Assembly (NCBI GenBank): GCA_965223325.1
Contig: CBDCWI010000002.1
Location: 352,001 to 416,000 of the forward strand
Direction of reading: 5' to 3'
DNA: 64,000 nt
Source: Candidatus Multivoradales bacterium
Lineage (GTDB): Bacteria; Acidobacteriota; Thermoanaerobaculia; Multivoradales; Multivoraceae
Part shown: positions 3,001 through 17,821 of the stretch, one piece after another
How the letters are laid out: every line of letters starts with the position of its first letter
How positions within the stretch are numbered: the stretch's first letter is position 1
Notes under the pieces: model-generated
The model's input: the letters and a program-made list of their open reading frames with translations, nothing else
Told to the model about the DNA's origin: nothing
Databases searched by the model: none
Program-made: the position numbers and the translations under genes

Positions 3001-6000
3001 GGCCCGCCGCCGGCGCTCGATGATTTGGTGATCGAAAGCTGAGAACTGGCGCCGACCTGATAGCCAAAGTCGATGGTGTAGTCGACGCTACCGCTAGCGA
3101 TGCTCACCGACCCCACGTGGTCGCAGACGGTGCAGCCGGCGCCCTCGTCCGGGTCGTAGAAGAGCACCACGCTCGCCGGCAGCGAAGCAGTGACCACCGC
3201 AACGGTGTAGTTGCCGTCGGCGATATCTCCGAAGGCATAAAACCCCTCGCTGTCGGTGGTCGTCGATGCAACAACGGAGAGCGAGGCATCGACCAGGTTG
3301 AGCTGTACGTTGGCCAGACCGAGCTCCGACGAAACGCTGTAGAGGCCATCACCGTTGCTGTCGAGCCAGACGGCATTGCCGATCGACCCTGGCGCCTGGA
3401 AACCGAAATCGGCAAAGTTGACGAGCTGTCCGGCCCGCAACTCGACCGCCAGGACGCCGTCGCACACCGTACAAGGGCCGGTTTCGGTCGGGTCGCCAAC
3501 CAGCGTCGAACTCGGGAGGTCCGGGTCGGAACTGTCGACCCGAACGATGTAGTCGTCGGGAACCAAACCACGGAACCAGTACTCGCCCTGGGCATCGGTC
3601 GTCGTCGTGCCCCGCAGCACGTCGGTGCCGGGGGTGTACAGGCTGTCGCCGTTTGTGTCCTGGTAGAGCCAGACGGTGACGTTGGCGATTCCAATCTCGT
3701 AGAGATCGTACAGCGCGTCGCGATCGTCGTCGCGCCAAACGCTGTTGCCGATCGTGCCGGGCGGTGCGAAACCAAACTCGAGATCCGCGCGTGTTTCGCC
3801 GGCAGTGAGGGCCACCTGTTCTGGATCGTTCTGGGTGCTCAGAATGTAACGATTGCCATTGGAATCGTTGGGGAGGTCGGTATCTGAAGTGTCGATGTCG
3901 ACGACGTAGTTACCGCCCGGCAGGCTGTCGAAGCGGAAGCCGCCGGCGCCGTCACTCGAGAGGCTGCCGATCAAAGCGTCCTCGGCATCGACTGCTCCGT
4001 TGCCGTTGTCGTCTTCATAGAGTGAGACCTTGATGCCGCCGAGTGAAGCTTCTTCGGCATCGTAGATCGCGTCGCGGTCGGCGTCGGTCCACACGACACC
4101 CGCGATGGTTCCGCTGCCTGTAGGCAGGTAGCCGAAGTCCATCGTTAGCACCGAGTCGCTTCCATCGACGCTGGCACTGCCCTGGGCATCGCAGGTATTG
4201 CAAGCAATCGGTTCATCGGGGTCAGAACTCTGGAGATAGCCATCGGGCAGGTCCGGGTCGCCCTCATCAACGACCACGACGTAGCTACCAGCCACAAGGC
4301 CGGTAAACAGATAGGCGCCGCTCGAGTTGGTGCTCGTCGAGGCGACGAGACCATCCGCGCTCTCGATGACACCGTCGCCGTCTTCGTCCTCGTAGAGAAG
4401 CATCGATACATTGGCGATCCCCTCCTCGCCAGAATCGACCTGGCCGTCCCCGTCCCAGTCTGTCCAGAGCAGATCGCCGATCGTCGACGAGCCGCTCTCC
4501 TGGTACCCGAAGTCGTAGCTTCCCTTGACCTGGCCGCCGGCGACCGCCACGGAGATGGTGGTCATATGGTCGAGAGTTGCATCCGGATCGCCGGTCTGGT
4601 TCCAGGTACCGCCGGCAGGCAGTGTCGCGCTGATGATCGAGACCACGTAGCTTCCATTTGCCAGATCGCTGAACAGGTATTGACCTGCCGAATCGGTGTT
4701 GAGGCTGACTGTTGGGCCGTCGTCTCCATCGCCACAGATCGTGTTTGCGCCGCAGTCCTTCAGATCGACCTGGACGGAGTCCAGGCCCGGCTCGCCGGTC
4801 TCCTGGACGCCGTCGCCGTCCAGGTCACGCCAGACCGTTCCGAAGATCGTGTTGGGAAGCGTGTAGCCGAAGTCGAGAACAGCGTCATCGTTGCTTGCTA
4901 GACCGTCCGCATTGGCGAGTGGCGCACCGCCTCTGTCGTCGCAGACGCCGCAGACTCCCACGAAATCTGGATCGCCGGTCTGGGTAAAGGTGCTCCCGGG
5001 CAACGTCGCAGGAAGAACCAACGCCACGTAGCTCCCGTCTGCGAGACCATCGAACCGGTAGGTGCCGTCGGCCTCGGTCTGCTGAGACACGAGCCGCACA
5101 CCGTCGCTCGGGTTGCCATCGTTGTTGGGGTCGCTCCACAGTTCGACCGTGACTCCCGGAACACCCGGCTCGGCACCGTCTCTGATCCCGTTGCCCGGCG
5201 TGCCTCCTCCCGAGCCGTCGTCAGAGAAGACGGTTCCCGAGATCGTGCCTCGTGGTGCGACATCGACTGTGTCACTGGCAGTGACATCGGCGATAGCGAA
5301 CCCGTCCAGGTACTGCGCACCGTTCGTAGCGGCGGTGTTGGTCGTGGTCGCGACATCGTTCTCGCCGTCGCCGTCGTTGTCAGGAGGTTCGAGGGCCAGA
5401 AAGGTTGCCGTGACCGAGGCGGTTTCCCGAGAATCGAGCGGACCGAGATCATTCCAGGCAAGAACGCCGGTATTGGCGTACGGTGTCGTCGTAAAGCTCA
5501 GGGAGTTGGCCGGTGGATCCGACCACTGGAATTGCAGTTGATCGGCATCGAACGTGTCGACCAGAGGAAGCGGCGAGAGCGTTCCGCCAGAAAGGGCCTT
5601 CGAGCACTCCTCGAGAGTGATGCGGATTCCGATGGCGTCGATATACAGCGTGACGCCGTCGTTCCCGCCCACTGAGGCCGGGTAGTAGCGGATCTTGCTG
5701 TACCTTCCGTTGTTGGAACTGATCCTGTGAAAGGAGAGTGACGTGACATCGGTCACGATCGTGCCGGCATTGCCCACGCCGATGTGGTTGTTGAGGGTCG
5801 CAGAGTCGATGGTGATGAGGTTGGAACCATCGGTCAGCCCTATGTTCAACACATCGTTGCTGACCGCTGAGTCGATATAGAAGTGGATGAACGTCTCGAT
5901 CTTGAGGAAGTTGTGGGGCAGATATCCCACCGCCCATTGAGGGTTCGCGTAGGTCGCCGAGCCGAAGGGGGCTGGTTCGTAGCTTCCGTCGAGTGCCGCC

Positions 6001-8879
6001 AGGGTGGCCGGGGGGGAGCCTGAGACGACGCCCGGGTAGGGGGGCCAGTTGTCCCTGATGAGGTGTTCCATGGACCATGTTTCGACCTGGCAGGGACCAC
6101 CGAGAGCGCGACGCTCGACGAAGTCTCTAGCGTTCTGTCGAGCGTTACTCCATGAACCGGCGAGGTTCGTCTCCGATCGTTTGACGCTTGGGAGTTCGTT
6201 GCCTGGCAACGCCGGAGAGATGGTGGTCGCTATGCCTCCTACCGGGGAGGATGTAGTCTTTTCGGCGATCTCGGCCGAGGGCGAAACAGCGTGCACCAAA
6301 GGCTCGAGAGTGGTTCCAGCGGCAGCGTCGAAGGTCGTCGCGCGCCTCGCGCCGCCGCTCAGGCAGCCCTGCTTCGTTACCCGCACTCCGATCGCGTCGA
6401 GCTGTGGATTGGCATCGTCGGAGCTCCCAGCGGTCACCATGACTGCCGAAACATAGAAGTTCGGATCGGAGAGAGCCGCCCAGTCCCATGTCTGAAGCGC
6501 GGTCACGTCACAGATCATCAATGTGTCTTGGTGATGCGACGAACTTGGCATGGAGGTCCAGGAGTTCGGAGTTGGACATGCCGACGTCGCAACGCCGTCC
6601 TCTGAGTAGACGAAATGAAAGGTATCGTTGCTCAGAGTGCTGACCTTGGTGACCCTCATGACGAGCTGCACGTTCTCGATTGTTCCCGTGCCACCAGTCC
6701 AGTCGAACCCGGTTCCCCGATACTCGCCGGCCCACAATGAGCTGACGCCAGCGGAGAAGCCGTCAGGCGGCCCCAGGCCGTCGGCAGGCGAGAGATCAAA
6801 GGTGGTGTTCGCCGCGTCATAGCTCTCGGCCCACCGCGTCATCACGCAGGAATCTGCGGGAGCCACGTAGGACGTGCCGCTCCTGTTGTTGGTGACATCG
6901 ATTTCAAAGGTGACCAGCTCGCCTTCTGCAGCCGGGTCGCTACTGGTCAGACTCTTGGTGATCACCAGACCAGCCTGGAAGCCAAAATCGGCGGCAGCGT
7001 AGGGGCTGGTGGTCACGCCTCCGAGATCGGTCACAGCAAGCGCGGTTCTGGTGGTCGGAGCGTAGCCATCTGGGAGGTCGGGATCGGCGCGATCGACGAC
7101 CGCGATGTAGTCCCCATCGGGGAGGTTGGCGAAGCTGTAGGCGCCGGAACCGTTCGTGACCGCACTGGTGATCAAGAGATCGCTGGAGTCTAAGGACCCG
7201 TCGCCATTGGCGTCCCAGTAGAGCTCGACCAGAATCGACGCGATGCCAGTCTCAGCGGCGTCGACGCTCTTGTCGCCATCGGCATCGTGCCAGACCACAT
7301 CGCCGATCGAGTTGCTGCCGGTCACCAGGCTCACGGTGCTGTCGCGAGCGAAGGGTGGAGCTTCTCCGAAGCCGAGCTCGGCCTCGTTATCGATGAACGG
7401 CAGGCCACTGAATGGCGAGTCGACCTGAACCTCGAACGACGGCGTGACACTGCCTGACGCCGGTAGCGGATCCCTGAGCCACCACCGCAGATCGGTCACC
7501 GTCGCCGGATCACCCGGCTCGGTCGCAGTCCATGTGAGACGCCCATCGGTCGAGTAGAGAATCAGAGCGGGCGTGTTGGGCGTGTACCCGAGTGTGATCT
7601 GAGCGCTGGCCGCAACGTACGTCGTGTTGGCTGGAATGCTGTCGGTGACGACCAGGGGCACTCCGAGGGCCGGATCACCCGCCGGAGTGACGGCATCGTT
7701 GTCGACCTGAATCGAGTACAGAAGAGTGCCACCAGGAGCGACCGACACCAGGTTGACGGACTTCTCGAGCGTGATCTCGGGAGCGTAGGTCCCGATCTTC
7801 GGCAGACTGATGCCGTAGTCGCCGGTGAACTTCTCGTTGTCAGCCCCAGACGCGACTTCCTGGTAGGGCGACATTCCGATGCTGCAGCCGCCGCGTAGCG
7901 CCAGAAACTCATAGTGCACCTCGCCTCGGCCGCCGGTGTTGTCGGGCGGAAGGTCAGTGAAATAGAGCTGGTCCTCGAAGTTGATCACCAGGTCTGGATC
8001 GCCGCCGCTGCGTTTGATGGTCAAGGTGCCATAGGTGCGCACGAGGCGAAAGCAGGTTGGGTCATGCGCAGGATCTCCCACCGGCTGCAGCCAAGCGTTG
8101 TAGTCGTACTCGAGGTCGCCGTCGTTATCGAAGCCCTTGTTGATGTTGCCGAGGTCGTAGTTGATGCCGTTGGTGGTGACCAGGGTTCCCACGGCGACGG
8201 TGTCGGTGGCAACGTTGAACCACTGGCCGTCCTGAGGGTAGATCTTGTTGGCATTGGCGGAGATCTCATTGCGCATCGTGGCGCGTTGGCTGGCCACGAG
8301 GGGAGCCGGGCTCTCGGCCGAGGTTCCCCAGACGTCGTATTCCAGCCACAGATCGTCATCAGGGTCGCTGGCGACACCCCACACGGCCGGCCCGGTGTTG
8401 TTGGGGTTGCCGCGCCGGGGGTAGGTCACCTGCCAGTACTGGGAGACACACTCGGCGGGGGAGAGGATGTCGAGGTAGCGGCCTGCATCGGACACCGCGC
8501 CGAGGTGGGTGAGCGCGTAAAGGCCACTGTTGGCCAGGTGAGGATGCTCCGCTTGAAAGGCGGCGGCGCTACTGTCGCGGGCGGGATAGACGCCAGGCGA
8601 GAGGGCCGTTGAATCACCGATAAAGCCCTGCACGTCACTTAGCGGCGCGTCGCCATCGTTACAGAACCTGGCCATGACCGTGGCCACCGCAGGCGCGTAG
8701 GTCGAGGGCGAGGTGACGTTCGAGTCGACGACGAAGTTGTAGCCAGCGACGATCTCGATCGAGAGGTCACCGGCCGCGACGAGGGCGCTCGGGGCGAGGT
8801 GAAAGACACCGAGGAGCAGCAGACCGATCCACACTGTACGACAAGGAGCGGTCTCAAGAGGCGGTCTGGGCGGAGGCAT
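1..8879 (-). CDS. Giant secreted repeat adhesin (SdrD B-like and DUF11-like domains), >2959 aa, C-terminus outside window
   Basis: Manual translation from ATG at 8879 gives a signal-like N-terminus (VWIGLLLLGVFHLAPSALVA). The same frame at several checked points and at the left edge gives repeats such as GDTVFFDADGDGIQDPGELG, IGDRVWHDVDGDG and IGNAVWLDSNGDG (about 14 copies, about 345-nt spacing where tandem) plus DUF11-like starts (LSITKSS, LVITKSL, ITLEKSV). The ORF track lists no terminated ORF in this frame, consistent with one open frame. Confidence 0.9.
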   Translation of the reverse strand, partial: MPPPRPPLETAPCRTVWIGLLLLGVFHLAPSALVAAGDLSIEIVAGYNFVVDSNVTSPSTYAPAVATVMARFCNDGDAPLSDVQGFIGDSTALSPGVYPARDSSAAAFQAEHPHLANSGLYALTHLGAVSDAGRYLDILSPAECVSQYWQVTYPRRGNPNNTGPAVWGVASDPDDDLWLEYDVWGTSAESPAPLVASQRATMRNEISANANKIYPQDGQWFNVATDTVAVGTLVTTNGINYDLGNINKGFDNDGDLEYDYNAWLQPVGDPAHDPTCFRLVRTYGTLTIKRSGGDPDLVINFEDQLYFTDLPPDNTGGRGEVHYEFLALRGGCSIGMSPYQEVASGADNEKFTGDYGISLPKIGTYAPEITLEKSVNLVSVAPGGTLLYSIQVDNDAVTPAGDPALGVPLVVTDSIPANTTYVAASAQITLGYTPNTPALILYSTDGRLTWTATEPGDPATVTDLRWWLRDPLPASGSVTPSFEVQVDSPFSGLPFIDNEAELGFGEAPPFARDSTVSLVTGSNSIGDVVWHDADGDKSVDAAETGIASILVELYWDANGDGSLDSSDLLITSAVTNGSGAYSFANLPDGDYIAVVDRADPDLPDGYAPTTRTALAVTDLGGVTTSPYAAADFGFQAGLVITKSLTSSDPAAEGELVTFEIDVTNNRSGTSYVAPADSCVMTRWAESYDAANTTFDLSPADGLGPPDGFSAGVSSLWAGEYRGTGFDWTGGTGTIENVQLVMRVTKVSTLSNDTFHFVYSEDGVATSACPTPNSWTSMPSSSHHQDTLMICDVTALQTWDWAALSDPNFYVSAVMVTAGSSDDANPQLDAIGVRVTKQGCLSGGARRATTFDAAAGTTLEPLVHAVSPSAEIAEKTTSSPVGGIATTISPALPGNELPSVKRSETNLAGSWSNARQNARDFVERRALGGPCQVETWSMEHLIRDNWPPYPGVVSGSPPATLAALDGSYEPAPFGSATYANPQWAVGYLPHNFLKIETFIHFYIDSAVSNDVLNIGLTDGSNLITIDSATLNNHIGVGNAGTIVTDVTSLSFHRISSNNGRYSKIRYYPASVGGNDGVTLYIDAIGIRITLEECSKALSGGTLSPLPLVDTFDADQLQFQWSDPPANSLSFTTTPYANTGVLAWNDLGPLDSRETASVTATFLALEPPDNDGDGENDVATTTNTAATNGAQYLDGFAIADVTASDTVDVAPRGTISGTVFSDDGSGGGTPGNGIRDGAEPGVPGVTVELWSDPNNDGNPSDGVRLVSQQTEADGTYRFDGLADGSYVALVLPATLPGSTFTQTGDPDFVGVCGVCDDRGGAPLANADGLASNDDAVLDFGYTLPNTIFGTVWRDLDGDGVQETGEPGLDSVQVDLKDCGANTICGDGDDGPTVSLNTDSAGQYLFSDLANGSYVVSIISATLPAGGTWNQTGDPDATLDHMTTISVAVAGGQVKGSYDFGYQESGSSTIGDLLWTDWDGDGQVDSGEEGIANVSMLLYEDEDGDGVIESADGLVASTSTNSSGAYLFTGLVAGSYVVVVDEGDPDLPDGYLQSSDPDEPIACNTCDAQGSASVDGSDSVLTMDFGYLPTGSGTIAGVVWTDADRDAIYDAEEASLGGIKVSLYEDDNGNGAVDAEDALIGSLSSDGAGGFRFDSLPGGNYVVDIDTSDTDLPNDSNGNRYILSTQNDPEQVALTAGETRADLEFGFAPPGTIGNSVWRDDDRDALYDLYEIGIANVTVWLYQDTNGDSLYTPGTDVLRGTTTTDAQGEYWFRGLVPDDYIVRVDSSDPDLPSSTLVGDPTETGPCTVCDGVLAVELRAGQLVNFADFGFQAPGSIGNAVWLDSNGDGLYSVSSELGLANVQLNLVDASLSVVASTTTDSEGFYAFGDIADGNYTVAVVTASLPASVVLFYDPDEGAGCTVCDHVGSVSIASGSVDYTIDFGYQVGASSQLSITKSSSAGGGPVNPGSVINYNVTVLNSGALPVTEVSISDPLPNGTTYVPGSAQLSGMIVGTGDYRDEFTATYPDPGYNGSDGTLDWSPNAWSEINDDGSPSGGDVQVLTDSGDLSLGIQKSGRGAQRGFDLTGSTAATISLDYRRAGFDGASDYVTLDISYNGGSSWTELTRFAGPATDSAYQNFSIALDPATYLDSNPADNLLRLLSSGLANNGSDDFYADSITIDVTSRALRTVGAQAPALMVPPGPDVYLLSGESLSLTFQVVVDDPLSSAVSQITNRAGASSRETIEPIFAMTIDRVSRGGIIGDRVWHDVDGDGSQDVGEPGLANVTVLLTDPGGDGQPGGGDDTVVGLATTDINGSYRFSALSPGVYFVDVTDATVPGALSLTAGGSDPSSVRTVTANETFLDLDFGYTNTSTTRAVIGDRIWSDADADGLQDPSEAGLGGVTVQLLNEAGTVVLTTTTAADGFYLFDDVVPGSYSVEVAASNFSAGQVLSGYSVTSGPQSPGTDQSAPIVVEAGDAHLDADFGYDSAATRSITDRVWFDANADTFVDIGERGLEGVTFSLLDSHGDVVASTVSDGSGFFTFTGLAPGSYVLQVTDVHAQLLGLTGTTTAALNSRLPLSVTTGNLSGASFGYNVPGAIGDMVWSDVDADGVLDPDEVGIANVTVNLWRDADANGVFDMLLDTPLLSTVTDGAGYYRFESLAAGTYFASIDGSQAALTGYTATTADQELGANAPGIQIEATLISVLAGYLDADFGFQNAVLADVSGTIFDDRDRDGVNDGAGEPGIAGVTLALEDMSGNVLATTISDASGAYAFRDLAAGNYRVVVTDDDDVLADAQLTSGLDALPVALGATNVGDVDFGYNRTQERGTIGDTVWFDANRDGVMSGAENGLSGVVVELWEDSNGDGLRGAGDTLLETTTTDLAGSYLFSGLAPGNYFVDPDESTLPAGFGATPGTGPASPMVALAAGTDDDTADFGYAPTVGSALGDTVFFDADGDGIQDPGELG

Positions 8880-8914
8880 GATCGTTGGACGGCAGAAGAA
8901 CGAATCAGAACGGA

Positions 8915-8980
8915 TAGTCAAACAGCAAGTATAAATATTATAACGCAAATAACGGAGAAAACCACTTTCAATAAGCAAGA
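8915..8980. promoter_or_regulatory. AT-rich divergent promoter region (adhesin / lipoprotein)
   Basis: Marked AT-rich patch (aagtataaatattataacgcaaataac) in GC-rich DNA between divergent genes; promoter elements not mapped. Confidence 0.4.
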
Positions 8981-9042
8981 AAGTCGCCCTGGGGGCCCCT
9001 TCAAAAACAGACCCCGAGCCGGTCTGTCTCCCATCCTGCATC

Positions 9043-9070
9043 GCGTCCGATAAGATAGATTATGTCAACC
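9043..9070 (+). other. dif: dif-like XerC/XerD recombination site
   Basis: GCGTCCGATAA-GATAGA-TTATGTCAACC: 11-6-11 layout with the conserved ATAA-N6-TTATGTNAA core of E. coli dif (GGTGCGCATAA-TGTATA-TTATGTTAAAT); intergenic. Confidence 0.82.
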
Positions 9071-9190
9071 TATCAATGAGAGCCGGTCTCAAGTAACGAA
9101 TCGTCTCCAGTTCGGAAAGGTCCACCTGAAGCCGCCGAAAGCAAAACCTGCTCGACCGCGGAACCCAAACCTGACCTCTTGGAGATGACC

Positions 9191-9709
9191 ATGAACCGCA
9201 AGACCCTCACCCTCGCCCTGACGCTTCTTCTCGCAGCTTCCCTGACCGCCTGTTCAGGCGGTGGCGGCGGCGCCGACTCGCCAACCGCTCCGACCGCGGC
9301 ACCAGTACTCAACGTGCACGGCACCTGGCAGGGCTACTACGGTGGCCGAATCGTGACCCTGACCATGAGCCAGGCCGCCAACAGCCGCAACATCAGCGGC
9401 AGCGTTGACTCCCGCTACTACCTCACCGGTTCGACGGGACTCACCGGGACCACCAACTACCGTGGTCGTGACAACGGTACGGTCGACTGGGAAGCGACCC
9501 TTTCCTGCGGCTCCTGGAGTGGCCACCTCGAAATGAACGGAAGCCGCACCCGCATCTACGGAAACGCCTTGTACCGCGAGTGCGGGAGCACCGTCGTCAA
9601 GACTGGCATGATGGACCTGGTGAAGGTTTCTGAAAGCGCGTCGACCACGAGCGGTGGCAGCGCCGACACGGTCGGCAAGTTCGAGGACGCCGACAGCTTC
9701 TTCGAGTGA
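9191..9709 (+). CDS. Hypothetical lipoprotein (172 aa)
   Basis: GGAG RBS at 9181; MNRKTLTLALTLLLAASLTA-C lipobox, Gly/Pro linker, beta-rich body. Confidence 0.85.
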   Translation: MNRKTLTLALTLLLAASLTACSGGGGGADSPTAPTAAPVLNVHGTWQGYYGGRIVTLTMSQAANSRNISGSVDSRYYLTGSTGLTGTTNYRGRDNGTVDWEATLSCGSWSGHLEMNGSRTRIYGNALYRECGSTVVKTGMMDLVKVSESASTTSGGSADTVGKFEDADSFFE

Positions 9710-9734
9710 AGCGCAACCAGGAAGGGGCCCTTAC

Positions 9735-10604
9735 CTAGGCCTCTTCCAGCTCTCGGAGCTCACTCAGGATCTGCTCCAGCGCCCCGATGAGATCCTGACG
9801 ATCGACCTCTTCTTGACGAAACGTCAGGGAGAGGTCGAAGCGCTTGTCGGGGGCCTTGAACTTGAAGACGTAGGGCTTCGGCCGCGCTGGCTTACCCTTG
9901 TCGCTGTCCTTCTTGACCGCCCGGCGCACGTCCTTACGGCTCAGGCCGAGGCTCGAGATGCGCTCGAGCAGTAGGATCATCTCGTCCTCGTCATCGAGTT
10001 TCATGACCTCGAGGAGAACCGTCTTGGAGTCGATGCCCAGCGCGTCGACCGCCGAGCGGACCCGCTTGGGCATCTTGAGAAGGCTCAAGCTCTCGGTCAC
10101 CGAAACCCGTGACTTCCCCACCGACCTCGACACTTCTTCATGAGTGTAGTCGTGCTGGGTGGCCAGCGCTCGATAACCCTCGGCCTCTTCGAACGGGGTC
10201 AGGTCTTTGCGCTGCAGGTTCTCGATGAGCGCGATCTCGAGCGCCTCGCTCTCCGAGATGTCCATCTCGATCGCCGGGATTTCGTAGAGGCCCGCTTCCA
10301 TCGCGGCACGGTAGCGGCGCTCGCCAGAGATGATGCGGTAGCCGGTACCGTCTTCGCGGGAACGCACCAGAATCGGCTCGAGAACCCCCTTCTCGCGCAC
10401 CGACGACACCAGGTCCTGAAGGTCGCCCAGCTGAACTCGCGGCTGGTTCGGATCAGGTTCGATGGCCGAAAGCGCAATCATGCGACCGACGGGAGCTTCG
10501 CTGCGACCAACGAGTTCGTCGACGAAGTGTGCCTCATGGCGCATGCGCACTTTCGACGGTAGGCCTCTCTTCTTCGAACTGCGGCTGGTAGCGGGTTCAG
10601 ACAC
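9735..10604 (-). CDS. parB: ParB/Spo0J-family partition protein
   Basis: PDPNQPR, GVLEPILVR, CTP-binding GERRYRA, ENLQRKDL, HTH region THEEVSRSVGKSR. GTG start at 10604 overlaps the parA stop. Confidence 0.93.
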   Translation of the reverse strand: MSEPATSRSSKKRGLPSKVRMRHEAHFVDELVGRSEAPVGRMIALSAIEPDPNQPRVQLGDLQDLVSSVREKGVLEPILVRSREDGTGYRIISGERRYRAAMEAGLYEIPAIEMDISESEALEIALIENLQRKDLTPFEEAEGYRALATQHDYTHEEVSRSVGKSRVSVTESLSLLKMPKRVRSAVDALGIDSKTVLLEVMKLDDEDEMILLLERISSLGLSRKDVRRAVKKDSDKGKPARPKPYVFKFKAPDKRFDLSLTFRQEEVDRQDLIGALEQILSELRELEEA

Positions 10605-11358
10605 GGGCCAGAACCTCCTCGGACAACTTGTAGTACTCGAAAGCACCGGATGAACGCGGGGCAAAGGTAAACACAGACTCGCGATGGGCGGGACTCTCCT
10701 CGAGCCGCACGCTCTTCGAAATCACCGTCTCAAAGAGCTTGTCGCCAAAGACACCGGCAATCTCTTGATGAACGTCGCGCGCTAGCAGGGTGCGCTTGTC
10801 ATGCAGCGTGATCACCACTCCGAGCAGTTGCAACCCCGGGTTGGCGCGCCGCTTGAGCTTGTCGATCGTGTCGAGCAGATCGTCGGTTCCCTCGAGGGCG
10901 AAGTAGCTCGACTGAATCGGAATCAGAACGTGCTGCGCAGCGACCAGTGAGTTGACCGTGATCACACCCAGGGTCGGCGGCGTGTCGATCAGAATGTAGT
11001 CGTATTCGTTGCGTAACGCCTCGAGCTCGTCTTTGAGCCGGTAGTCGCGGTCGATCTCACCCAGCAACTTGGCTTCGAGCTTCGCCAGCGCGATCGAAGA
11101 CGGTGCGACGAAGAGATTCGGAACCGTAGGCACCGGCATGATGACGTCGGCGATCCCCACGTCGGGCTCGGTCATCGCCTGGAACATCGTCTGGCCGACG
11201 ACCGTTTCGGGCTCGAGAAACGACATGGTGCTGTTGGCCTGGGGATCGAGATCCAACAGCAGGGTCTTGCGCCCCTTCGAGGCAATCGCCGCCGAGAGGT
11301 TGATGGCGGTGGTGGTCTTCCCCACTCCGCCCTTCTGATTCGTAATCGCAATGACCAT
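10597..11358 (-). CDS. parA: ParA/Soj-family ATPase
   Basis: Deviant Walker A NQKGGVGKTT, DLDPQAN, IDTPP, VRLEESP. Confidence 0.95.
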   Translation of the reverse strand: MVIAITNQKGGVGKTTTAINLSAAIASKGRKTLLLDLDPQANSTMSFLEPETVVGQTMFQAMTEPDVGIADVIMPVPTVPNLFVAPSSIALAKLEAKLLGEIDRDYRLKDELEALRNEYDYILIDTPPTLGVITVNSLVAAQHVLIPIQSSYFALEGTDDLLDTIDKLKRRANPGLQLLGVVITLHDKRTLLARDVHQEIAGVFGDKLFETVISKSVRLEESPAHRESVFTFAPRSSGAFEYYKLSEEVLARV

Positions 11359-11435
11359 GGGGAGCGGGCGCAGTGTAGAGCACCGCTTCATGCAGGGTCA
11401 ACGATAAAACCACTCAAAAGGCGAATTCGTGAATC

Positions 11436-11453
11436 ATGTCGGCCGGCCGACAT
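11436..11453. promoter_or_regulatory. Perfect 18-bp palindrome, candidate parS/operator
   Basis: ATGTCGGCC|GGCCGACAT with no loop and no U-tract, about 78 bp upstream of the parA ATG. Confidence 0.55.
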
Positions 11454-11462
11454 CGTACGCGC

Positions 11463-11963
11463 TTACATCGTGTACTTGCCGAGATCGTCGGGACCGAGCT
11501 CTTCGAGCATCTTGCGGACCTCGTCTGGATCTTCGGTATCGACCCCTTCGGTCCTGGTCACCGCCTTGGCGCGGTCCAGCACATCCTTCTCGACGTAGAG
11601 CGACGCGCCGCTGCGGACGGCGAAGGCGATGGCGTCACTCGGCCGCGAGTCGACCCGGATCGTCTCGCCACCTCGGTTCAAGTAGAGCTCGGCGTAGAAG
11701 GTCTGGCCTTGCAGGTCGTTGATGACGACCTTCTCGAGCACCGCGCCGAGGTCGGTGACCACCGCACTCAACAAGTCATGGGTCATGGGCCGCGCGCGAT
11801 CGATCTTCTCGAGCTCGATCTGAATCGCGCTGGCTTCGAAGACACCGATCCAGATCGGCAGGAAGATCTGCTCCGCCTCATCGCGCAGGATCACGATCGG
11901 ATGGTTCGATGACGGATCGATCATCAACCCACGCACCGACATCTTGACCAGGGTGTCAGGCAC
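11463..11963 (-). CDS. Bifunctional nuclease family protein (DUF151)
   Basis: LPIWIGVFEA, RPMTHDL, FYAEL, DSRPSDAIA motifs. Confidence 0.93.
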   Translation of the reverse strand: MPDTLVKMSVRGLMIDPSSNHPIVILRDEAEQIFLPIWIGVFEASAIQIELEKIDRARPMTHDLLSAVVTDLGAVLEKVVINDLQGQTFYAELYLNRGGETIRVDSRPSDAIAFAVRSGASLYVEKDVLDRAKAVTRTEGVDTEDPDEVRKMLEELGPDDLGKYTM

Positions 11964-13338
11964 TGCGATCCTCCCGAACGTCGCGTGCGGTCCTTACCCG
12001 CCGCGGCGCGACCACCAGTTCCCCCAGCAAGCTGTGGTCGTTGGCATGCTGGATCTGAACTGGAACGATCGTCCCGGCGGTCACCGAATCGCCAGCCGCA
12101 AAGTGCACGATGCGGTGGCACGGCGTCCGTCCACTCCTGTACCCGTCCTGGCGACTGCGACCGGTGACCAGAACCTCGTGCGTCTCGCCGATGAGCGCCT
12201 CGTTGAGGGCGCGCTGGATCGGAGTCTGCAAGGCAAACAGATCCTGCAGGCGACGGTCGGCCACTGCGAGGGGAACCTCTTGATCGGGAAGTCGCAGAGC
12301 CGGAGTGCCCGGACGTGGCGAGTACTTGAAGGCGAACACCTGGCTGTAGCGCACCCTCTCGACCAGGTTCATGGTCTGCCTAAAGTCCTCCTCGGTTTCA
12401 CCCGGGAAGCCGACGATGATGTCGGTCGACAGTGCCAGGCCACAGCGCGCGTCGCGCAAGGCATCGACCAGCGCAAAGTAGCTCGCCACGTCGTATCCCC
12501 GACCCATGCGCTTGAGGATCTTGTCGGAACCCGACTGGACCGGCAGATGAACGAAGGGACAGATATTCGCATGACGCGCCACCGACGCCACCATGCGGGA
12601 GCTGAAGTCCCGCGGGTACGAGGTGATGAACCGCAGCCGGGCGAGCCCAGGAATGACCGCGATGCGGTCCAGCAGGTCAGCGAAGTCGAGCGCCCGGCCA
12701 CTCCCCCGCCCGTCTTCGGGCTCGCGCCAATGGTTGACCGTCTGCCCGAGTAGCTCGATCTCCTGGAAGCCTTCGGCGACCAGCCGCTCGGCCTCGGTCA
12801 CGATCTCGGCCAACGGCCGGCTGCGCTCTGGACCCCGGGTGGTCGGGACGATGCAGAAGGTGCAGCGCTTATCGCAGCCTTCGATGATCGTGATCATGCC
12901 CTTGTGCGAATCAGCACGGGCAATGGTGTCCATGTCGTAGTGGCGGTCCTGCGGAAAGCCAGTCGCCAGAACGCGCTCGCCGCGTTGCGCCCGCTCGACG
13001 ATGCGCCCAAGTTCCCCGACGCGACCCGTACCGACGACGAAGTCCAGGTCTTTGACCCGTTGGAGAGCCGCCTCGCCCTCCTGTTGAGCGACACAGCCGC
13101 AGAAACCAATGACAAGGTCAGAATTGTTTTCTTTCAACGACCGATAACGGCCGAGCTGCGAGTACGACTTTTGCGCCGCCTTCTCCCGCACGCTGCACGA
13201 GTTCAGGAGAATCACATCCGCTTCTTCAGCCGATTCGGTGCGCTCCATGCCCTGTACCGCGAGCTGCCCCGCCATGCGCTGCGAGTCGAGCTCGTTCATC
13301 TGGCAGCCCCAGGTCTCTACGAAAAAGCGCTTTCCCAT
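11956..13338 (-). CDS. miaB: tRNA-2-methylthio-N6-dimethylallyladenosine synthase MiaB
   Basis: ETWGCQMN, NSCSVREKA, GCVAQ, radical SAM GCDKRCTFC, LLGQTVN, HLPVQSGS, C-terminal TRAM-like region. Confidence 0.93.
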   Translation of the reverse strand: MGKRFFVETWGCQMNELDSQRMAGQLAVQGMERTESAEEADVILLNSCSVREKAAQKSYSQLGRYRSLKENNSDLVIGFCGCVAQQEGEAALQRVKDLDFVVGTGRVGELGRIVERAQRGERVLATGFPQDRHYDMDTIARADSHKGMITIIEGCDKRCTFCIVPTTRGPERSRPLAEIVTEAERLVAEGFQEIELLGQTVNHWREPEDGRGSGRALDFADLLDRIAVIPGLARLRFITSYPRDFSSRMVASVARHANICPFVHLPVQSGSDKILKRMGRGYDVASYFALVDALRDARCGLALSTDIIVGFPGETEEDFRQTMNLVERVRYSQVFAFKYSPRPGTPALRLPDQEVPLAVADRRLQDLFALQTPIQRALNEALIGETHEVLVTGRSRQDGYRSGRTPCHRIVHFAAGDSVTAGTIVPVQIQHANDHSLLGELVVAPRRVRTARDVREDRSA

Positions 13339-13493
13339 CCTTGCGATCACCTCACACGGATCCATGAGCCCTGGCGGCCGTCCAGAGGGGAGCGACTGTC
13401 GGGCGAGCTGCGAAGGTTACTACGGGACGGGGCCGCCGCACTGCCCGCCGCACTGCCGGCGCCACCCCGCGCGGCGTGGGGGCCAACCTCGTT

Positions 13494-14099
13494 TCAGTCC
13501 TGGCTACGGTTACGGTAGAGCTCGGGGTCGACGACCTCGGCCATCTTGCGGTAGGCCTCCGCGCGACCGACGAATTCCGCGATCCGCCGTGCCTCGTCCT
13601 CGGGGGAACCGAGGACCTCACGGTAGTGCACGTCGATCCACTCGAAGGCTGGATCGTTCTTGAGCAGATACCCCACCCGCCAGAGATGGTTCTCGTAGGC
13701 GTCGGTCATCTGCGCATCGGCGGCGTCGTCCTGCTCCTCGCGGTGATCGAGCATCTTCTGCTGTGAAGCCAGCACTTCGCGCAGGTCACGGCGCATGAAG
13801 ATGACCTTGTAGTTGTTGTCGCGCGGCAGGTCCTTGAGCAGAAACGAAATGACTTTGATCGCCTTGCCGCGCGAAGCCCGCAACCAGGACTTGTCTGCCA
13901 TGCCTTCGAGGTCCTTGACCCGCTCGTCCTCGAAGTAGCCCTTGGGGTTGTCGATATCGGCTTCACGCTCGTTATCGGTCACCACGCTGAGTCCGGCTGC
14001 ATCGAGCATCTTCATCGCCATGGATGTGCCCGAGCGCGGCAGCCCGGAGACCACAACCACCGGTGGCCCTTTGGTCAATCGTCGAATCAACTTACGCAT
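13494..14099 (-). CDS. PAPS-dependent sulfotransferase-family protein
   Basis: 5'-PSB loop SGLPRSGTS, NPKGYFE, 3'-PB-like RRDLREVLAS. Confidence 0.85.
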   Translation of the reverse strand: MRKLIRRLTKGPPVVVVSGLPRSGTSMAMKMLDAAGLSVVTDNEREADIDNPKGYFEDERVKDLEGMADKSWLRASRGKAIKVISFLLKDLPRDNNYKVIFMRRDLREVLASQQKMLDHREEQDDAADAQMTDAYENHLWRVGYLLKNDPAFEWIDVHYREVLGSPEDEARRIAEFVGRAEAYRKMAEVVDPELYRNRSQD

Positions 14100-14431
14100 C
14101 AATCAGCTCACTGGAATCGGAGGTTAGCGGGAGCGTGCGCACCCTAGCAGGAGTCGCCGGCTTCCTGGGGCCTCCCGGGCACTCTCCGCGGTCGAGCGGC
14201 CCATCGGTTGCGACACCATCGGAGGGCACCGTATGCTCTTTCGCGAACCCGAGCCGGTTGTCTTCCGGCCGCCTGTTCACCGACTTCTGGCGGTCGCTGG
14301 CCCAGCTCCCGATGATCCAGCTTCGGCTGTGCACCGCCCGGGCGCTTTGCACCAACTCGCCGCGCGGTGAGGCCTGCCCGAAGCCCGCCCGAGCTTCCGA
14401 TTCACCTTCACCCCCTCCAGTAAACAGCGAT

Positions 14432-16666
14432 ATGAAAGCCAAGCCCCAGAGGTCCATCACCCGCCAGAGAGCCGCCGCCGGCGACGCCAGCACGATCAAC
14501 AAACGCGGTGTCACCACCGTGGTGTTCTTCGCCGCCCTGGGACTGGTTGCGTTGCCGGGCTTCGCCCACGCCTACATCGGTCCCGGCGCAGGCGTCGCGC
14601 TTCTGTCGTCGTTCGCGGTGCTCTTTGTCACCATCATCATCGCCCTGGCCGCTGTCCTGGTGTGGCCCTTCCGCACCCTCTACCGGATTCTGCGACGCAA
14701 GAAGCCGCCCAAACCACTGGTCAAGCGGCTGGTCATCGTTGGCTTCGACGGCCAGGACCCGCGCCTCACCGACCAGTACCTCGCCGAAGGCAAGCTGCCG
14801 AACTTCGAGCGCCTCGCCAGGCGGGGCGGCTACCGCAAGCTGCGCACGACCTTCCCGTCGTTGTCGCCCGTCGCCTGGTCGAGCTTCAGCACCGGAACCA
14901 ACCCCGGCAAGCACAACATCTTCGACTTTCTCGACCGCGACCTGCGCAGCTACCTGCCGACCCTCTCCTCCACTGCCATCGGCCGGGTCGAACGCTTCCT
15001 GAAGCTGGGCAAGTGGCGCATCCCGCTTCATAAGCCGGAGCTGCGCCTCCTACGCAAGTCGAAACCGTTCTGGTCGATCCTCGGCGAGCACAACATCTGG
15101 AGCACGGTGCTGCGCGTCCCGATTACCTTTCCGCCCGACAAGTTCTACGGTGCGCAGCTCGCCGCAATGTGCGTTCCAGATCTCCTCGGTACCCAGGGCA
15201 CCTTTCTCCTGTTCACGACCCGACCGGCAGAGGGAGAGTTCAAGGAGGGCGGCCTGCGGTTCGAGCTCCCAGACTCAGGTGGCAACCACTTCGAGACCCA
15301 GGTCGAGGGTCCAGAGAACACCTTCTTGCCACCCGACGAGGATGGCGACGAACCCAAACTCACCACGCCAATGACCATTCGCCTCGACCGCTCAGAAGGT
15401 CTCGCGCACATCGAAACCGGTGATGAGAGCCTGGTCCTGCGGCCGGGTGAGTTCTCGCCCTGGGTGACCTTGACGTTCAAAGCGGCGCCCGGAGTCAAGG
15501 TCCACGGCATCTGCCGCATGAAGGTCACCGAAATGCCCGGCCATGACGAGAGCGAGCACTTCTCGCTCTACCTGACACCGCTCAACATCTCGCCTGACAA
15601 GCCGGCCATGCCGATTTCCCATCCGTCGTACTACGCCACCTACCTGCAGAAGGTCGTCGGCGACTACTGCACTTTGGGGCTCGCCGAAGACACCTGGGCA
15701 CTCAACGAAGGGATCACCGACGACGGCACCTTCCTCGAGCAGACCTATGACATCGATCGCGAGCGTGAAGAGATGTTCATGGCCTCACTCGAGAAGCTCA
15801 AGAAGGGCGCCCTGGTGTGCGTCTTCGACGCCACCGACCGCATCCAGCACATGTTCTGGCGCTATCACGAGAAGGGTCACCCCGCTGCCGCCGGCATCGT
15901 CGACCCTGAGCACGGCGACGCGATCGAGAAGCTCTATCGCCACAACGACGAGCTCCTCGGCCGGGTGATGGAAAAGCTCGATGACGACGACCTGTTGATC
16001 GTGCTCTCAGACCACGGCTTCGACTCCTTCCGGCGGGGTGTCAATCTCAACCGCTGGCTGGTCGACCAAGGGCTCCTGGTGCTCAAAGAGGGCACCGACG
16101 GTTCGAGCGAGTGGCTGCGCGATATCGACTGGTCGAAGTCGAAGGCCTATGCCCTGGGCCTGTCAGGAATCTTCCTCAACCTCGCCGGCCGCGAAGAACA
16201 GGGCATCGTGCAGCCAGGCGAGGAGGCGCGCGCCGTCAAGCAAGAGATCATCGAGGGTCTCGCCGGCATGATGGACGAAGAACGTGGCGAGGTCGGCATC
16301 ATCGAAGCATTCGACACCGAGGTCATCTATTCGGGACCCTACCGCCGCAACGCTCCCGACCTGATCATCGGTTTCAACTCCGGCTACCGCACCTCATGGG
16401 ACTGCGCGACCGGCCAGTCTCATGGCCCGGTCTTCGAAGACAACACCAAGGCCTGGAGCGGCGACCACTGCATCGATCCGCGTTTGGTACCCGGAGTCCT
16501 GTTCTCGGACCGGCCCATCGAGAACGAAGATCCGTCGCTTCTCGACCTGGCCCCAACCGCGCTCCAACTGTTTGGTATCGACGCCCCGGCACACATGGAG
16601 GGCGAGGCGCTGTTCTCCGAAGCTGCAGTGAATCGAAAGACGACCCAAGAGCGCGACGCCGCCTGA
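14432..16666 (+). CDS. Alkaline-phosphatase-superfamily (type I phosphodiesterase/nucleotide pyrophosphatase) protein with N-terminal YIGPG anchor
   Basis: GFDG, TTFPSLSPVAWSSFSTGTNPGKH, DRIQH, LSDHGF, GDH metal-site motifs; N-terminal AHA-YIGPGAG followed by a TM helix and RRKK. Start at 14432 is inferred. Confidence 0.88.
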   Translation: MKAKPQRSITRQRAAAGDASTINKRGVTTVVFFAALGLVALPGFAHAYIGPGAGVALLSSFAVLFVTIIIALAAVLVWPFRTLYRILRRKKPPKPLVKRLVIVGFDGQDPRLTDQYLAEGKLPNFERLARRGGYRKLRTTFPSLSPVAWSSFSTGTNPGKHNIFDFLDRDLRSYLPTLSSTAIGRVERFLKLGKWRIPLHKPELRLLRKSKPFWSILGEHNIWSTVLRVPITFPPDKFYGAQLAAMCVPDLLGTQGTFLLFTTRPAEGEFKEGGLRFELPDSGGNHFETQVEGPENTFLPPDEDGDEPKLTTPMTIRLDRSEGLAHIETGDESLVLRPGEFSPWVTLTFKAAPGVKVHGICRMKVTEMPGHDESEHFSLYLTPLNISPDKPAMPISHPSYYATYLQKVVGDYCTLGLAEDTWALNEGITDDGTFLEQTYDIDREREEMFMASLEKLKKGALVCVFDATDRIQHMFWRYHEKGHPAAAGIVDPEHGDAIEKLYRHNDELLGRVMEKLDDDDLLIVLSDHGFDSFRRGVNLNRWLVDQGLLVLKEGTDGSSEWLRDIDWSKSKAYALGLSGIFLNLAGREEQGIVQPGEEARAVKQEIIEGLAGMMDEERGEVGIIEAFDTEVIYSGPYRRNAPDLIIGFNSGYRTSWDCATGQSHGPVFEDNTKAWSGDHCIDPRLVPGVLFSDRPIENEDPSLLDLAPTALQLFGIDAPAHMEGEALFSEAAVNRKTTQERDAA

Positions 16667-16993: not shown

Positions 16994-17821
16994 ATGAACG
17001 CCTTCTTCTCCCTGCTCGCAGGTCTGACCGACCTCCTGATGCGTCCCTTCGTCAACCTGCCGTTGATCGTGCCGGTGACGGTGATGGCAGCCATCGCCAC
17101 CGTCTTGTTCCTCCTGGTCTACCGGTGGACCTCGAACCAGGAGGGCCTGGTGCGGGTCAAGAACAAGCTGGCGGCATCGTTCTTCGAGATCAGGCTCTGG
17201 AACGACGACATCGGAGCCATCTTCCGCGCCCAACGCGACCTTTTGTGGAACAACCTCAAGTACATCGGCCTCAACCTGGTGCCGATTCTCTGGTTGACCA
17301 TTCCGTTCGCGCTCGCGATGGGGCAACTGCAGGGCTACTGGGGCTACGAGCCCTTCCTCCCAGGTGAAAGCCGCGTCGTCCGCGCCGAAGTGCTCGGCGA
17401 GATCGCCTCCGCCGGGCGACCCGATCTCGAGCTCGAACTGCCCGAGGGCATCACCTTGACCGCCCCACCGGTGTGGAGCAGAAAAGCTCACGAAATGGCG
17501 TGGCAGGTGCGCGCCGAGGCCCCCGGCGCCTACGAAATCGCCCTCCGCCTCGGCGATCAGACGACAAACAAAGCCGTCACCGTCGGCAAGGGAGCACTGC
17601 GCCGTTCACCGATTCGCGCCAACGGCAATTGGATCGATCGCATCCTCTACCCATCAGAACCGGCTCTCGATGAGGCCACCGGCCTCAAGCGCATCACCAT
17701 CGACTACAACGACGCCGAAGTCGACATGGGGTTCTGGTCGATCCACTGGCTGGTGCCGTTCCTGCTCCTCACCATCGTCTTCGCCTTTGCCATTCGCGAG
17801 CGCATGGGCGTGACGTTCTAA
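16994..17821 (+). CDS. Membrane protein, DUF106/EMC3/TMCO1-like (Oxa1 superfamily)
   Basis: TM1, helical hairpin (YRWTSNQEGLVRVKNKL), TM2 (LVPILWLTIPF), YEPFLPGE, soluble insert, C-terminal TM3 (HWLVPFLLLTIVFAFAIRERMGV). Family call from remembered pattern of archaeal DUF106 proteins. Confidence 0.6.
   Translation: MNAFFSLLAGLTDLLMRPFVNLPLIVPVTVMAAIATVLFLLVYRWTSNQEGLVRVKNKLAASFFEIRLWNDDIGAIFRAQRDLLWNNLKYIGLNLVPILWLTIPFALAMGQLQGYWGYEPFLPGESRVVRAEVLGEIASAGRPDLELELPEGITLTAPPVWSRKAHEMAWQVRAEAPGAYEIALRLGDQTTNKAVTVGKGALRRSPIRANGNWIDRILYPSEPALDEATGLKRITIDYNDAEVDMGFWSIHWLVPFLLLTIVFAFAIRERMGVTF

Follow-up and report, generated by a model that had tools for sequence, protein, structure and literature searches.

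Chromosomal ParABS is regarded as an origin-segregation machine, and the described examples (Soj/Spo0J of Thermus thermophilus and Bacillus subtilis, and the systems of Caulobacter crescentus and Myxococcus xanthus) combine a Soj-type ParA with a deviant Walker A motif, a ParB that carries the GERRxR and ENLQR motifs, a helix-turn-helix (HTH) and a C-terminal beta-beta-alpha element, a parA-parB operon, and a 16-bp palindromic site with TGT...ACA ends. The organisation and segregation of the terminus, outside the enterobacteria and Caulobacter, are largely an open field. The stretch of DNA described here, the window, comprises the 64,000 nucleotides at C2:352,001-416,000 in the genome of a Candidatus Multivoradales bacterium of the phylum Acidobacteriota (G000; an assembly of 6.69 Mb in two contigs, C1 and C2), and it contains, within 2.4 kb of a dif site, a parB gene (parB2), a parA gene (parA2) and a perfect palindrome. 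This cassette shares with the chromosomal systems the features just listed, the C-terminal element as predicted in a structure model, and the best structure matches of its proteins are 1VZ0, 7BNK, 8RAY and 1WCV, but its place is next to dif, at the terminus, instead of close to the replication origin (oriC), it coexists with a canonical copy, its inferred site is TGTCGGC-NN-GCCGACA and not TGTTTCACGTGAAACA, the peptide expected to contact ParA is a variant one, and ParB2 gives no match to Pfam ParB_C. We read it as a complete second ParABS, dedicated to the terminus, that stands beside the ordinary origin ParABS of the same chromosome; the probability of this reading is put at roughly 0.55, and the binding of the palindrome, the clamping with cytidine triphosphate (CTP), the ParA2-ParB2 interaction and the cellular role that it includes are predictions from sequence.

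Other described systems resemble the cassette in part. MatP binds DNA at specific sequences, and these occur only in the terminus region that surrounds dif. With MatP/matS of Escherichia coli and Vibrio cholerae the present system shares the confinement of sites to the terminus (Ter) region, as seen in one genus of the same order (g11), where ParB2 is without a ParA partner and 3-9 sites per genome are dispersed over the 480 kb or so on either side of dif; it differs in that ParB2 has the ParB CTPase fold and not the fold of MatP, and in that the genome studied here has a single site and a dedicated ParA ATPase. The resemblance is functional and is not one of membership, and the Pfam scan of ParB2 gave only ParB_N and HTH_ParB. 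The nucleoid occlusion protein Noc, with its binding sites (NBS), is like ParB2 a ParB paralogue found beside a canonical ParB and apparently re-specified by substitutions in the recognition helix. Noc is not known to have a ParA partner, and its sites are kept out of the terminus; ParB2, in contrast, has a ParA partner and sites that mark the terminus, and although the Noc model of NCBIfam (TIGR04285) is its top match there, the score of 156.3 bits is far below the cut-off of 315. Multipartite genomes (chromosome 2 of V. cholerae, parABSm of the Thermus megaplasmid) likewise maintain two ParABS with distinct centromeres in one cell, but those systems serve separate replicons and lie near each origin, whereas here both belong to one chromosome, on which they face each other across the replication map. 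The searchable full-text literature, which takes in few subscription journals and no supplements, yielded no account of the site motif or of a chromosomal ParABS that is linked to the terminus or to dif, and no such system appears in the accessible parts of the 2020 review of chromosomal ParB proteins (PMC7022226) or of the 2025 preprint survey of the ParB-CTPase fold (10.1101/2025.10.10.680097), the latter of which names Noc as a parB duplicate.

An earlier note on the window had pointed out a dif-like site, a parB, a parA and an 18-bp palindrome, and had read them as a second ParABS with its own centromere that may position the ter region or, alternatively, as a domesticated plasmid-type system; as findings that would speak against this it had named the lack of an inversion of skew or of FtsK-orienting polar sequences (KOPS) at the site together with a better dif elsewhere, a lone parAB near oriC, and orthologues unlinked to dif. 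The four elements are all where it had placed them. The dif site (9043-9070, plus strand) is the 28-mer GCGTCCGATAA-GATAGA-TTATGTCAACC, in which we take 9043-9053 to be the XerC-type arm, 9054-9059 the spacer and 9060-9070 the XerD-type arm, following the known layout. It shows the two 11-bp arms, the 6-bp spacer, the single copy and the location at the replication terminus that define a 28-bp dif, and its motif is conserved among relatives. The 24-nt core, GTCYGATAA-N6-TTATGTMAA, has one match in the 6.69 Mb at up to one mismatch and its reversed control none, so the genome holds no better dif elsewhere. The machinery that acts on such a site is encoded as well: a XerD at C2:2,253,479 (359.6 bits against an NCBIfam cut-off of 329.6), a second Xer-type recombinase at C2:3,219,914 (286.6 bits) and, elsewhere in the genome, an FtsK with its gamma domain (FtsK_gamma, 94.2 bits).

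The position of dif is that of a chromosome terminus. Along C2 the cumulative GC skew climbs until 350-361 kb, declines from there until about 3.5 Mb and then climbs once more, and that of C1 is monotonic over the whole 2.14 Mb; C1 is therefore part of one replichore and no separate replicon, and the genome is one chromosome in two contigs. The gene dnaA, at C2:3,505,930, marks the skew minimum, and the genome-wide maximum (at 1-kb resolution) is at C2:361,000, or position 9,000 of the window, with dif on it at C2:361,043. The word GGGNAGGG, taken a priori as the KOPS word and counted up to 800 kb, occurs in a ratio of plus to minus orientations of 42:14 to the left of dif and of 19:42 to the right, and the best switch point of this polarity is 3 kb from dif; a de novo search for a polar KOPS-like octamer found none that was sharply polar, the best words being only 62-75% on the leading strand. 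Both inversions named in the earlier note are, in other words, found at the dif-like site. Along one arm the cassette is 3.14 Mb away from dnaA and lacks the origin-proximal location of ParABS, a trait that is typical of these systems and not mechanistically defining.

Exactly two loci in the genome encode a ParB_N protein, and the other one is a canonical origin locus: genes for YidC, a Jag-like R3H protein, GidB/RsmG, ParA1, ParB1 and a bactofilin follow one another at the skew minimum, at C2:3.464-3.466 Mb, about 40 kb from dnaA, and three perfect TGTTTCACGTGAAACA sites at C2:3,465,949-3,466,063. Since this intact rsmG-parA1-parB1 locus lies near dnaA, the dif-linked set is a second system and not a lone parAB. 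No canonical parS, at up to two mismatches, was found near the terminus cassette. As a side observation, the bactofilin gene abuts the parB1 stop codon (L035:4212-4613, equal to G000:C2:3,463,211-3,463,612; Pfam Bactofilin, 89.5 bits), a neighbourhood that resembles the association of bactofilins with ParABS known from Myxococcus.

The gene parB2 (9735-10604 including the stop codon, minus strand) encodes a protein of 289 amino acids with ParB_N (92 bits) and HTH_ParB (63.5 bits, with a cut-off of 22.6 and a score of 112.6 for ParB1) domains. Its frame is open over 9735-10664, and the most likely start is a GTG at 10604 that overlaps the stop of parA2 within GTGTCTGA, the two genes sharing 8 nt; a GTG-Ser start is common to most ParB2 orthologues. 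ParB2 can be aligned with ParB1 over its N-terminal 144 residues only (40% identity). The CTPase motifs GERRYRAA and ENLQR are invariant in 13 of 13 ParB2 orthologues, and by these motifs ParB2 would be a CTP-binding ParB. In the AlphaFold2 model (mean predicted local distance difference test score, pLDDT, of 81.8) a disordered N-terminal peptide precedes the ParB_N and helical DNA-binding domains, and the C-terminus forms strands at 245-250 and 257-262 and a helix at 269-288 (pLDDT 76-89), a predicted beta-beta-alpha topology that may correspond to the known dimerisation domain of ParB.

In the DNA-binding domain ParB2 departs from its canonical relatives. The HTH carries KSRVSVTESLSLLK...SKTVLL, and the description given in the earlier note, of a ParB that keeps GERRYRA while its recognition region is altered, holds for both motifs as quoted. 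In an alignment of 21 ParB2 and 18 ParB1 sequences the recognition helices are fixed within each clade, as VTNSLRLL...AGQARPLL in ParB1 and VTESLSLL...KSxLLEVL in ParB2, and these are the HTH positions that set the specificity of ParB and Noc. At the N-terminus, the conserved ParB2 peptide K(K/R)RGLPxRVxMRHxxHFV, present in this genome as KKRGLPSKVRMRHEAHFVDEL, aligns with (K/R)RGLGRGLDAL of ParB1.

The partner gene, parA2 (10597-11358 including the stop codon, minus strand), encodes a Soj-type ATPase of 253 amino acids (AAA_31, 191 bits; CbiA) in which the deviant Walker A motif NQKGGVGKTT can be read directly. Its frame is open over 10597-11391, with an upstream alternative ATG at 11391, and the likely start is the ATG at 11358 (MVIAITNQKGG; the orthologues begin MIIAITNQKGG). 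ParA2 is 39% identical to ParA1, and its nearest structures are 8RAY (E = 1.5e-56) and Soj of T. thermophilus, 1WCV (E = 3e-52). A complex prediction with a ParA2 dimer, adenosine triphosphate and residues 1-45 of ParB2 gave scores of 0.05, 0.32 and 0.00, which speak neither for nor against binding. Apart from the two par loci, the genome has two adjacent orphan ParA-like (AAA_31) genes at G000:C1:213,616-215,441 and C1:216,009, with a degenerate parS-like palindrome, CGTTTCACCTGAAACA, about 0.6-2.4 kb from them; AAA_31 matches number nine in all, one of them at C2:2,256,528, 2 kb from xerD.

The affinities of both proteins bear on the origin of the cassette. By their sequences ParA2 and ParB2 are of the chromosomal Soj/Spo0J type and not of a plasmid type: the closest solved structure to ParB2 is Spo0J of T. 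thermophilus (1VZ0, E = 1e-40), followed by the ParB-family entries 7BNK, 7O0N and 7BNR and then by Noc, with KorB distant (E = 5e-16); ParB2 passes the NCBIfam model parB_part (150.9 bits, cut-off 58.45) and stays below the cut-off of all plasmid RepB/SopB models (RepB, 51 bits); and its nearest ESM-Atlas clusters are acidobacterial ParB clusters. The domesticated plasmid-type system that the earlier note had offered as its second option is, as to type, not borne out. A related proposal would make the cassette the remnant, without host function, of an integrated plasmid, of a chromid or of a dif-exploiting element of the kind called IMEX (integrative mobile element exploiting Xer recombination). 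Xer-mediated integration does place foreign DNA at dif, and the gonococcal genetic island, which is flanked by dif and carries parA/parB-like genes, is like the present locus in that par-like genes adjoin dif. One relative, G016, has a good dif at G016:C1:3,640,937, 24 kb from its parB2 (locus L015, G016:C1:3,655,500-3,675,499), and, only about 2.2 kb from parB2, a dif-like site that is degenerate (19 of 28 matches), an arrangement of the kind that a mobile element would be expected to leave on integrating at dif through Xer recombination. An IMEX, however, would have two bounding dif-like sites and a patchy distribution, and here the first 20 kb of the window contain no second dif-like site (at least 18 of 28 matches), no match to a rep, integrase or relaxase family came from the Pfam-scanned frames of at least 166 amino acids between -9 and +18 kb (smaller open reading frames, ORFs, lying outside that scan), and the context is kept in 20 of 20 loci of the order and 20 of 20 of the phylum. 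The cassette is vertically conserved, with strong sequence conservation, within one and the same housekeeping block in about 90 of 151 genomes of the phylum. The remnant proposal is the least likely of the alternatives, with very little probability left to it, because the proteins are chromosomal in type, mobility genes were not found among the frames scanned, and the cassette is inherited vertically.

The third component is the candidate centromere, parS2, a perfect 18-bp palindrome, ATGTCGGCCGGCCGACAT, at 11436-11453, whose 16-bp core TGTCGGCCGGCCGACA spans 11437-11452, 10 bp past the stop codon of the neighbouring gene for a BFN-domain protein and 78 bp before the start of parA2. The 18-mer is unique in the genome even at up to two mismatches and the 14-nt core is also single; the pattern TGTCGGC-SS-GCCGACA occurs once, against about 0.03 copies expected from base composition. 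Among the relatives outside g11, 24 of 30 have 1-5 copies at up to one mismatch, mostly perfect, within 2.5 kb of parB2 on the parA2 side, and in most genomes with listed positions perfect copies occur nowhere else; the reversed palindrome gives 0-2 matches per genome. In all 11 loci of the order that were mapped the palindrome is intergenic between the BFN gene and parA2. Two further genomes, G012 and G031, also have matches, and none was found in G002, G008, G009 and G014; in G009 a contig edge cuts close to parB2, and G014 lacks a ParB2 match. In 20 loci from other classes of the phylum the site lies inside the cassette every time, with perfect half-sites (TGTCGGC/GCCGACA) in 17 and one mismatch in three, against two matches in total for the reversed control over the same loci. 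The two central bases vary (CG, GC, CA, AG, CT, GT, AC) and the half-sites are fixed, as would be expected of a site for a protein dimer, and the outer TGT...ACA is shared with canonical parS. In deeper lineages the site is often found within the parB2 gene or in the interval from parB2 to dif. The palindrome thus belongs to the cassette as a conserved cis element, which fits the centromere postulated in the earlier note and to which ParB2 would bind. An RNA reading of the palindrome was considered and rejected: Rfam gave no match in 1-16000, no terminator-like site was found in 8700-11700, and the fold of the hairpin is no better than that of shuffled sequences (z = -0.52). In one relative (G007; L013, G007:C1:6,756,000-6,775,999) part of miaB, BFN, parA2 and parB2 are duplicated in tandem at an offset of about 7.8 kb, with a one-mismatch palindrome upstream of each copy and the second parB2 truncated to about 190 amino acids.

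The linkage to dif extends well beyond this genome. ParB2-type matches were found in 39 of 40 relatives from the order, in 12 families (one of them partial, at a contig edge), the remaining genome, G014, being 79% complete and without a match; their identity to ParB2 is 55-71%, against 32-48% for the canonical paralogue. The dif pattern occurs, mostly in single copy, in 36 of 41 genomes of the order, and in 34 of these 36 it is on the same contig as parB2 and follows the 3' end of the parB2 match at 8 bp to 2.6 kb, by distances compared by hand from match positions. The phylum was sampled with 151 genomes of at least 90% completeness, in which the best ParB2 E-values form two separate groups (up to 1e-56, and from 8e-43 upwards); about 90 have a ParB2-type match, and 83 of the 90 a canonical-type one as well by hand count. 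An exact dif pattern is present in 65 of the 151, and in 33 of the 42 ParB2-bearing genomes among these it lies within 6.1 kb of parB2 (in 31, within 2.5 kb); the tallies include the unpublished G062, G182 and G087, without which they become 88 of 148 and 31 of 40. The distance between ParB1 and ParB2, which serves as a proxy for terminus position in the relatives, is 42-50% of the circle in eight of the eight single-contig genomes that list both (G007, G011, G016, G018, G022, G024, G109 and G145). Orthologues of this ParB remain linked to dif, as the earlier note had proposed to check; its reading of a second ParABS with its own centromere at ter is supported, and none of the tests that it had set against itself came out against it.

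On another account the cassette would be an old duplicate in a frozen gene block, active only in its own autoregulation or on a cargo other than the chromosome, and its location would be incidental. The neighbours miaB, BFN, lptFG and metK are indeed as syntenic as the par genes across the phylum, and in the order the palindrome is placed where the promoter of parA2 is likely to be, so that it would also fit an operator. The site, nevertheless, shifts within the cassette among lineages, being found before parA2, inside parB2 or between parB2 and dif, yet it never leaves the cassette; the extra sites of g11 are only in the Ter region; and DNA is the cargo suggested by a ParB that is of the DNA-binding kind and has its CTPase motifs intact. 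An incidental location is for these reasons held to be highly improbable.

The genus g11 (loci L014-L018 and L023-L025; single-contig genomes G011, G016, G018, G022 and G024, of 4.2-4.9 Mb) departs from the general plan. In eight of eight loci the order is miaB-BFN-parB2-dif, with parA2 missing, while ParA1-ParB1 are kept at the origin, and the ParB2 of this genus is without the peptide K(K/R)RGLPxRVxMRHxxHFV; of the evidence at hand, this joint loss speaks most strongly for the peptide as the ParA2 contact. In families f24 and f39 the ParB2 match begins at residue 29-41, and the N-terminal peptide may be missing there too. Near-consensus sites (16-mer, up to one mismatch) number 3-9 per genome in the five single-contig g11 genomes, against 0-1 for reversed controls, and 29 of the 30 are within 480 kb of dif. 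In G022 the flanks of the nine sites are mutually unrelated, and the sites are therefore not copies of a repeat element; five of them lie in frames open across the whole 1-kb stretch and four in open stretches of 195-324 codons. The five genomes are close kin, and their sites are probably orthologous and not 30 independent events.

These genomes give the best footing to the view that the system is a marker or organiser of the terminus and not a motor, with ParB2-parS2 labelling, compacting or tethering Ter in the manner of MatP/matS or ZapT, and ParA2 as an accessory. ParB2 stays beside dif in g11 without parA2 and without the peptide, nearly all sites are in the Ter region, and one conserved site about 5.2 kb beyond dif in all five genomes means that the sites bracket dif. 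Outside g11, on the other hand, parA2 is kept in 12 of 12 loci of the order and 20 of 20 of the phylum, and it is the more conserved of the pair (mean column identity over 13 orthologues of 75%, against 63% for ParB2); in those genomes the cassette holds the sites as a cluster, with no dispersal, and the genome studied here has a single one. A marker without a motor is considered unlikely, although it is the alternative with the most to be said for it.

In the mechanism proposed for the terminus-dedicated ParABS, ParB2 dimers would recognise parS2 (TGTCGGC-NN-GCCGACA) through the re-specified HTH, form clamps that close with CTP and slide out over a few kb on either side, a zone that in this genome would include dif, 2.4 kb away. 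The Soj-type ParA2 on the nucleoid would be stimulated by the variant N-terminal peptide of ParB2 and would position or separate the terminus complex, so that FtsK-XerCD would find the last-replicated DNA and dif kept at the division plane before the sister termini are parted. In g11 the system would have turned into a ParA-independent organiser with dispersed sites, reminiscent of MatP/matS. That the system positions the ter region is a proposal.

The same spreading could serve a narrower end, in which ParB2 acts locally on dif, by regulating XerCD-FtsK, by blocking elements that exploit dif or by loading or unloading the SMC complex (structural maintenance of chromosomes), and any positioning of the terminus is secondary. 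The proximity of dif to the end of the parB2 match, 8-300 bp in most genomes of the order, would suit such a controller, as would the location of parS2 in many deep lineages, where it is within parB2 or in the gap that separates parB2 from dif, and the fact that the DNA beside dif looks like an insertion hotspot, both here and in G016. Against a fixed architecture with one Xer arm speaks the orientation of dif, which flips between lineages; acidobacterial families without ParB2 carry the same type of dif, and insertions of 0.7-24 kb between parB2 and dif are tolerated. Local control of dif as the principal function is accordingly judged improbable.

Several observations weigh against a terminus-dedicated ParABS and should be set beside those in its favour. 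The whole block miaB-BFN-parA2-parB2-dif-lptFG-metK is syntenic across the phylum, and the adjacency of parB2 and dif could in part be a legacy of gene order, with no selection for proximity. As said, dif does not keep one orientation with respect to parB2. Linkage has exceptions in the order (dif is on another contig in G015 and 24 kb away in G016), and in the phylum the dif-pattern match is on another contig in nine of the 42 genomes counted; the count itself covers 42 of the 90 ParB2-bearing genomes, the other 48 having no exact dif match, and in G042 and G117 distances of 38 and 31 kb separate parB2 from the best dif-like site. In G144, a genome of 1.9 Mb from family f24, ParB2 and ParB1 are only 73 kb apart (G144:C5:354,203-428,037). 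As for the proteins, ParB2 has no Pfam ParB_C match, which ParB1 has, and its N-terminal peptide lacks the ParA-binding motif (L/I/F)G(K/R)G(L/I/F) as given in the accessible part of the preprint survey (10.1101/2025.10.10.680097). The genus g11 keeps ParB2 and dif without ParA2, and ParA-driven movement is therefore dispensable there. The genome studied here, finally, has a single parS2, and its 20 matches at up to two mismatches show no clustering near ter, with which the possibility of dispersed weak sites in this genome was rejected.

A wider proposal builds on the terminus-dedicated ParABS: acidobacterial chromosomes would be bi-centromeric, with a dif-bound ParABS2 that parts the termini, and one genus would have shed the motor and spread its sites over about 0.9 Mb, in convergence on MatP/matS. 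It is advanced tentatively, as a generalisation with somewhat less than an even chance of being right. If true, it would provide a natural case of ParABS machinery at the opposite chromosomal pole, phylum-wide and joined to dif. Two orthogonal ParB/parS pairs on one chromosome would constitute a natural experiment in specificity switching, ParB2/parS2 could serve as ready-made orthogonal tags for the imaging of chromosomes, and g11 would show an evolutionary path from a ParA-dependent partition complex to a Ter organiser with dispersed sites.

Having discussed the cassette, its surroundings can be described briefly. Between parS2 and parA2 there is a weak sigma-70-like promoter match, TTGACC-18-TACACT (11372-11401, minus strand), a match to the consensus only, of which one is found against 0.6 expected from shuffles. 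Upstream lies the gene for the BFN_dom protein (11463-11963, minus strand; PF02577, 132 bits), which we take to be the DUF151 of the earlier note and which is syntenic in 20 of 20 loci of the order and 18 of 20 of the phylum, and beyond it a miaB-type radical-SAM methylthiotransferase gene (11956-13365, minus strand; UPF0004, Radical_SAM and TRAM domains), syntenic in 20 of 20 and 17 of 20; LptFG is present in 19 of 20 phylum loci. The housekeeping neighbours and the missing rep gene were correctly described beforehand, the latter within the frames scanned as above. Two of those frames, 9179-9709 and 16994-17821, have no Pfam match at all. The first, between parB2 and dif on the plus strand, is a lineage-specific ORF of 176 amino acids with a lipoprotein-like signal (LTAC), without a Pfam or NCBIfam match and without a tblastn counterpart in the loci of 20 relatives, and by these comparisons it is outside the conserved cassette.

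On the other side of dif, about 16 kb of lineage-specific DNA separate it here from lptFG (window 3-8879, minus strand, and leftward to G000:C2:348,139), and they hold a giant gene of about 4,246 amino acids with SdrD-B-like repeats (13 Pfam stretches within the 2,959 amino acids that lie inside the window) and a TonB-dependent receptor gene. In a genome of the same genus, G001, dif is 274 bp from the parB2 match, and the frame that holds a fused lptF/lptG opens 38 bp past dif (L082:4595-7147). Finally, 12-18 kb from dif, on the minus strand at window positions 20899-27455, there is an AddAB/RexAB-like pair, a UvrD-type helicase of 1,106 amino acids followed by a PD-(D/E)XK nuclease protein of 1,079 amino acids.

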